Shown piece by piece: positions 13,806-14,890 of a stretch of DNA of 64,000 nucleotides. The translations under genes were made by a program, and so were the position numbers. The DNA is taken from assembly GCF_058153355.1 (NCBI RefSeq), contig NZ_CM177019.1; one strand, given 5' to 3'. A model generated the notes under the pieces. That model did no database searches and was not told the origin of the DNA. It saw only the letters and a program-made list of their open reading frames with translations. Numbering within the stretch: the first letter of the stretch is position 1; every line of letters begins with the position of its first letter.

Positions 13806-14890
13806 CAGATGATTTCCAGTTTTGCCCGCAGACATCCCGCACTTTGCATTGATTGCAGTATGGACATCAGATCCATCGGCGTAGCGCCCAGCGCATTGAG
13901 CGCACGCACCACGTTATTGAGGCTGGCGCTGGAACGTACGCTTTGCAGCGAACCGCCGCTCTGGCGTAAATCGATCTGCGTTTGTGGAGTAACCACAGTC
14001 TGCCCGCCACCAAACGGTGTATCTGGCTGGCTGACATTGGCCTGCCGATTTACCGTAACCGAGAGATTCCCCTGCGCTACCGCGCAGCTGTCGAGGGTCA
14101 CTTCGCGATTCATCACCACCGAACCAGTGCGCGAGTTAATCACTACTTTAGCGTCCTGCGGGGTAACATTAACCTGCATATTCTGGATATCGGCAAGGAA
14201 ACGGACCTGGGAACTGTTGCCACTCGGTACGCGCACCTGAATAGTCCGCGCATCTAACGCGGTGGCGCTGCCATATCCACGCACGCGGTTGATGGTGTCA
14301 GCGATTTGCTGCGCCATACTGAAATCTTCGTCGTTAAGTTGCAAATTAAGGGTATTCCCGACGCCAAACTGGCTGGGCAATTCACGTTCAATAACCGCAC
14401 CATTGGTGATCCGTCCACCGTTCAGTTGGTTCACCTGAACACTGCTACCGCCAGCGGAGGCCCCTGCGCCGCCAACCAGAATATTGCCCTGTGCCAGCGC
14501 ATACACCTGACTGTCAGGTGTCATCAATAACGTACCGCCACGCAGACTTTTGGCATTTACCATGGAAGAAACCACCACGTCAATGGTTTGCCCCTGACGT
14601 CCAAACGGTGGAAGTGACGCCGTCACCATTACCGCAGCGACGTTTTTTAGCTGCATATTAGTGCCCGTCGGAACGGTAATTCCCAGCTGTGAGAGCATGT
14701 TATTAAGCGTTTGTGTGGTAAACGGCGTCTGAGTTGTCTGGTCACCGGTGCCATCCAGCCCCACCACCAGGCCATAGCCAATCAGTGAGTTTTGCCTTAC
14801 CCCCTGAACACTGGTGAGATCGCGAATACGCTCAGCCTGAGCTGCCGTGATAACCAGTAGAAGAATTAATGCAGAGAGAAATTTAATCAC
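13805..14890 (-). CDS. flgI: flagellar P-ring protein FlgI; appears 4 residues shorter than the usual length
   Basis: ORF 13805-14893 opens with tandem GTG GTG; start placed at the second GTG ([12 protein letters not shown] signal peptide), giving 361 aa. Confidence 0.85.

Follow-up and report, generated by a model that had tools for sequence, protein, structure and literature searches.

A probably degenerative flgI allele with a 12-bp in-frame deletion in a rarely sampled lineage of Escherichia coli

The flgI gene in the stretch of DNA analysed here, which is 64,000 nucleotides long and is referred to as the window, has lost four codons and carries a substitution close to them. The question raised by this locus is whether such a gene still specifies a working P-ring protein or whether it is in decay. 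It lies in a flg cluster bounded by rne and murJ, in which flgL, K, J, I, H, G, F, E, D, C, and B are on the minus strand and, after flgB, flgA, M, and N are on the plus strand. Of the 14 flg genes in this stretch, all but flgI and flgF, 12 in number, are intact and of full length. It is quite probable that this is a degenerative, lineage-specific flgI allele in a rarely sampled E. coli lineage, the basal-body genes of which have recently been freed of purifying selection.

The flgI CDS (13805..14890, minus strand) has 361 codons and a stop, and was recognised from its open reading frame, its homology, and its flgH and flgJ neighbours as a P-ring protein gene with an internal four-residue deletion and the substitution G111V. 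Residues 1–361 of its product align to Salmonella FlgI (7bgl_a, 365 aa) in a phmmer search of solved structures (E=1e-204). A protein identical to that of the window carries the name FlgI in NCBI and has the Pfam domain PF02119 (flagellar P-ring protein) on record. The gene sits between flgH and flgJ in the flgBCDEFGHIJ operon, and gene order in the window follows that of annotated E. coli loci. The Sec signal peptide (14834..14890, minus strand) is intact, residues 1–19 matching those of the wild-type E. coli allele exactly; residue 20 is where the alignment to the mature Salmonella chain 9iyc_A begins, and mature FlgI is predicted to start with ERIRD. On homology, predicted signal peptide, and operon position, the gene is assigned to FlgI.

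The RefSeq CDS starts at a GTG (14888..14890, minus strand) that is the second of two tandem GTG codons. The first-pass annotation had named this start alongside the deletion. The second tandem GTG is indeed there; however, the RefSeq start is the same GTG ATT AAA TTT in K-12 (b1080) and in all nine other panel genomes. Annotated in this way throughout, the GTG is the wild-type state and not a lesion, and it adds nothing to the argument for relaxed selection. Gene position, GTG start, and signal peptide are all shared with wild-type enterobacterial FlgI (K-12 b1080; Salmonella PDB 7CLR and 7BGL). Apart from the two lesions, the protein in the window equals the common E. coli allele WP_000589300.1 at all residues. 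Unlike wild-type enterobacterial FlgI, it is without mature residues L107 to V110 and has the mature substitution G92V.

The closest E. coli flgI allele, that of NZ_CP027579.1 (locus L001, 6001-7101), was used as the reference for a global alignment of 1,101 columns. A single 12-nt gap is present in this alignment, CC[GCTTAAGGGCGT]TGAC, and there are two point differences, a silent T>C and G335T, the latter being G111V. The gene is therefore 1,089 nt long in the window vs 1,101 nt in the reference, and the protein 361 aa vs 365. On the minus strand, the coding-strand sequence GCTTAAGGGCGT is absent between the C at 14517 and the T at 14516 (junction 14516..14517). The loss is in frame and takes exactly L126-K127-G128-V129 of the precursor, which are L107 to V110 of the mature protein. 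The placement of the gap is unique, and the adjoining Pro codon changes from CCG to CCT. Codon 111 (14558..14560, minus strand), which is GGN (Gly) in other E. coli, is GTA (Val) in the window; this is mature Gly-92, three residues ahead of Lys-95, and the change lies 42 nt upstream of the deletion. Compared by phmmer with Salmonella FlgI 7bgl_a, the window protein has the same four-residue gap and the same change from G to V.

These alignments bear out what the first-pass annotation had proposed for the gene. Loss of LKGV had been called within 14505-14530, an interval that encloses the junction at 14516/14517, and it is seen against both the NZ_CP027579.1 allele and Salmonella 7bgl_a. The reference length of 365 aa, against which 361 had been counted, is that of Salmonella FlgI 7bgl_a, and the suspected SSMVNAK in place of SSMGNAK is G111V, the residue being Gly in the Salmonella protein. 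No microhomology was seen flanking the deletion junction when the alignment to NZ_CP027579.1 was read by eye. A repeat-driven deletion was considered and rejected, as the nearest direct repeat, TGACA, with copies 19 nt apart, would yield a different and out-of-frame deletion.

The affected residues were compared with those in 109 full-length FlgI homologues, 38–67% identical to E. coli FlgI, from a search of 1.84 billion cluster representatives. The segment spanning residues 118–136 is 19 residues long in 107 of these homologues, with one of 18 and one of 20, and in none of them is it four residues shorter. L126, which is deleted in the window, is L, M, or I in all 109, and G128, also deleted, is G or A in 103. 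At G111 there is G in 100 of the 109, A in five, and Y, C, S, and L in one each; Val, the residue in the window, does not occur. G111 and L126 are within the 29 columns that are conserved at 90% or above in an alignment of 102 sequences. Columns 127 and 129, the latter being Val-110 of the mature protein, are variable across the homologues. The FlgI of the window thus departs from the conserved hairpin in having 15 residues in this segment vs 19, in having lost L126, and in having Val at 111.

Mature numbering here follows Yamaguchi et al. (PMC8298488) and was checked against the Thr-33 to Thr-36 loop described there and against the mature Salmonella chain. In that work, residues 12–159 form the FlgI-IRU domain, which has a beta-barrel-like fold, and FlgI stability and LP-ring formation depend critically on the N-terminal 120 residues (PMC8298488). 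Residues of the hairpin contribute to both FlgI hydrophobic pockets, which hold Leu-44, Phe-45, and Phe-31 of FlgH; the inner pocket, which includes Leu-103 and Met-104, holds Leu-44 and Phe-45, and conservation is lower in the outer pocket (PMC8298488). FlgI Lys-95, on the side facing the rod, has a part in P-ring assembly (PMC8298488). The flgH gene itself (14902..15600, minus strand) is intact in the window, and the N-terminal chain of its product docks on the FlgI hairpin that is hit by the deletion (contacts from PMC8298488).

In AlphaFold2 models, wild-type FlgI has strands at 120–127 and 133–140 with a turn at 128–132, and the deleted protein has strands at 120–125 and 131–138. Comparison of these boundaries means that each arm of the hairpin is two residues shorter in the deleted model. 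The 12-bp deletion would take the end of a strand (L126, K127) and the start of the turn (G128, V129) from the 120–140 hairpin of the FlgI-IRU domain. Shortening of the hairpin is predicted from the models to remove Val-110 and to draw Val-114 and the near-invariant Tyr-115 into the turn. G111V, mature G92V, would set a beta-branched residue at a near-invariant Gly, three before the rod-binding Lys-95. Mean pLDDT is 92.2 for the wild-type and the deleted models alike, a value that is uninformative on stability. AlphaFold2 is insensitive to destabilising mutations, so the high pLDDT of the deleted protein weighs little. Because both lesions strike features kept across the family, it is inferred that the FlgI of the window is impaired or inactive in the assembly of the P ring or LP ring.

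The same observations could be read differently, with the four-residue loss as a variation in length that is tolerated where a surface hairpin turns, at its tip, a P ring that works, and flgF alone behind any loss of motility. The frame is kept, and a very common E. coli allele has the identical signal peptide and the identical sequence over the remainder of the protein. The fold is retained by AlphaFold2, with pLDDT of 93–96 in the blocks around the deletion, and two of the four deleted positions are the variable columns 127 and 129. Close to G92, the single mutants K95A and K95D of FlgI retain partial motility (PMC8298488). Against this, the length of the segment is constant in all but two of the 109 homologues and four fewer residues is not a length that any of them has. 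L126 and G111 are near-invariant, and Val is not an alternative at 111. One pocket residue would be removed and other residues that contact FlgH would be displaced.

The distribution of the allele also argues against a tolerated polymorphism. A search with flgI matched 5,425 of 5,426 complete E. coli genomes, none of them at 99% identity or above. Among the matches listed, every complete-genome match spans 1,101 nt, vs 1,089 nt for the flgI of the window. No complete E. coli genome therefore shows the deletion. A 61-nt probe matched 1,584 complete genomes, at a best identity of 98.4%, and the T that gives G111V was in none of them. Furthermore, the deletion is found only together with a broken flgF. 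The reading as a harmless length variant is thus considered unlikely, although it keeps some weight.

The allele is not confined to the window. EGO8352804.1 and HFG3509722.1 are records, as FlgI of E. coli, of exactly this 361-aa protein, and the same flgI allele is on five independent draft contigs labelled E. coli, including GCA_015332025.1 and SRR28786219. The loci from these two are 99.99% identical in DNA to the window. Its presence on five independent contigs makes the allele real and lineage-specific. Over the first 25 kb of the window, identity to the nearest complete genome is only 98.6%. For the exact RNase E, FlgK, FlgJ, and FlgE of the window (6810-18583), there are two NCBI accessions each, numbered beside those of the deleted FlgI, which shows how seldom the lineage has been sampled. 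The flgI allele belongs to this rarely sampled E. coli lineage. No published description of the flgI deletion was found in literature searches.

Divergence of the window from other E. coli is uneven. Compared with strain 2013C-4282, flgH and flgI (13805-15600) differ by 0.2–0.4%, whereas within 7805-20886 the neighbouring flg genes and rne differ by 1.6–2.7%, and flgA by 6.9%. This uneven divergence across the flg cluster points to a putative recombination mosaic. The csgG to putP and efe end of the window (50001-64000) is clearly more divergent than the first 50 kb: identity to complete E. coli genomes reaches about 96% at most, and no more than 587 genomes have 80% of it covered in a single place. 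An IS4-family transposase gene is present between yceK and mdoH (37635-38981, minus strand). Some complete E. coli genomes, such as VL46, have an annotated insertion at this same yceK/mdoH site, and the genomes that are closest to the window do not have it.

The flgF gene (16607..17358, minus strand) is a pseudogene. The first-pass annotation had called a frameshift in flgF, and a 4-bp loss is present that shifts the frame after codon 87, leaving a product of 111 residues, of which 87 are native and 24 out of frame. The loss reduces a perfect tandem repeat, (TGGC)3, as found in K-12 and other E. coli, to (TGGC)2 (17097..17104, minus strand). The frameshift is common to the window and the sister loci L002 and L017. 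Identical (TGGC) contractions of flgF are present in assemblies of S. flexneri (one) and E. coli (two others), and also in complete genomes, such as that of strain 90-3040, in which flgF is annotated as a pseudogene. Since the contraction recurs in unrelated genomes, the (TGGC) tract is a recurrent slippage hot spot through which motility would be lost. In Australian O157:H- STEC, insertion of a cytosine at position 125 of flgF is associated with non-motility (PMC6562248). As this different flgF frameshift is associated with non-motile O157, the flgF lesion of the window should by itself abolish flagellation. It follows that impairment of FlgI would have no phenotypic consequence of its own here, because the flgF frameshift should already block assembly of the rod. 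The lineage is probably non-motile, judging from the genes that it carries.

Changes in flg genes are also present among the sister isolates, which differ from the window by one to three SNPs per 10–21 kb, including either flgN Q58* or flgH F144L. The flgN gene is intact in the window (21327..21743, plus strand), where position 21498 is C. In GCA_015332025.1 and SRR8656992 this base is T, which turns the flgN codon CAG into TAG, Q58* (position 3393 of L002 and position 5598 of L017). In one sister contig flgN is absent from the list of genes, and a missing flgN was considered and rejected; the cause in the sisters is the nonsense mutation, and the copy in the window is intact. In a third sister, SRR28786219, FlgH has the derived change F144L (window position 15171; position 1335 of L003), and this is the sole difference between that isolate and the window in 12.7 kb.

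The lesions in the flg genes are therefore several: the 12-bp deletion and G111V in flgI, the frameshift in flgF, Q58* in flgN of two sisters, and F144L in flgH of a third. With two lesions fixed and two more changes that alter proteins still segregating within 12 kb, the pattern in the cluster fits relaxed purifying selection. Relaxed selection on the flagellar regulon had been proposed from the flgI and flgF lesions, and the proposal is supported, with reservations, for the flg genes, the flh, fli, mot, and che loci lying beyond the window. It is favoured by the flgF frameshift, by the conserved sites that are hit, and by the changes in flgN and flgH, and it is tempered by the 12 flg genes that are intact and by the absence of a nonsynonymous excess. 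In a test of low power on a panel of nine genomes, there were 25 synonymous and seven nonsynonymous lineage-private substitutions in the flg genes vs 14 and five in the flanking genes, which is no excess of nonsynonymous change. There being no sign of long neutral evolution, the inactivation looks recent.

Neutral decay after loss of flgF is not the only order of events that could be imagined. The flgI lesion may have come first, or may itself have been selected, with loss of flagella adaptive through a saved cost or through avoidance of flagellin recognition. Just 42 nt separate the deletion from G111V, in an allele that has a single other change along its 1.1 kb, and the contraction in flgF, being at a slippage hot spot, could have followed at any time. 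The substitution ratios of the flanking sequence likewise show no long period of neutrality. However, the sequence gives no order for the flgF and flgI events, and intermediates with a single lesion are absent: FlgI bearing G111V alone, FlgI bearing the deletion alone, and a repaired FlgF of this lineage were each looked for among about 15 billion proteins and none was found. In addition, the flgN and flgH changes in the sisters look like continuing drift. Precedence of, or selection for, the flgI lesion is for these reasons held to be improbable.

A more elaborate possibility is that the short hairpin and G92V together make a compensated, working FlgI with a remodelled FlgH-docking surface, and that the (TGGC) tract of flgF acts as a reversible slippage switch. 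Were this so, the lineage would have flagella under some conditions and would not be in decay, but it is a very remote prospect. An error of sequencing or assembly, or import of the stretch from another species, can be given practically no credence as the source of the deletion, since one NCBI assembly, one TPA assembly, and separate runs assembled in Logan all contain the identical allele, only two of the 1,089 positions of flgI depart from a common E. coli allele, and the deletion junction is absent from the species-representative genomes scanned.

A degenerative allele in a recently released flagellar cluster would have parallels in known non-motile lineages. A 12-bp in-frame deletion in flhC marks the non-motile lineage of sorbitol-fermenting E. 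coli O157:H-; flhC is a master regulator, and the consequence of this deletion has been shown by experiment. The flgI deletion is like it in being of 12 bp, in frame, and in a flagellar gene, and differs in that its consequence is deduced where that in flhC is experimental. The Australian O157:H- STEC resemble the lineage of the window in having a lineage-marking indel in a flg basal-body gene and a cluster that is otherwise intact. In those strains a different site in flgF is affected, whereas the lineage of the window has the (TGGC) contraction and the additional in-frame lesion in flgI. Shigella, as seen in S. dysenteriae Sd1617 (PMC4445032), is a non-motile part of the E. coli species complex with frameshifts in flgF and other flg genes. 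Decay there is far further along, with several broken flg genes and a FlgI that is still 365 aa, compared with two lesions in the cluster of the window.

The flgI and flgF lesions belong with the flagellar gene decay already familiar from non-motile strains of E. coli and from Shigella, while the flgI allele itself is new. Beyond the lineage its significance is small, being one more instance of flagellar loss in E. coli and Shigella. As a natural in-frame deletion at the FlgI-FlgH interface, in a hairpin of near-fixed length, it is nevertheless a ready-made test of how much change that interface tolerates. Together, the flgI deletion and the flgF contraction are clean genetic markers of a rarely sampled, probably non-motile lineage of E. 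coli.
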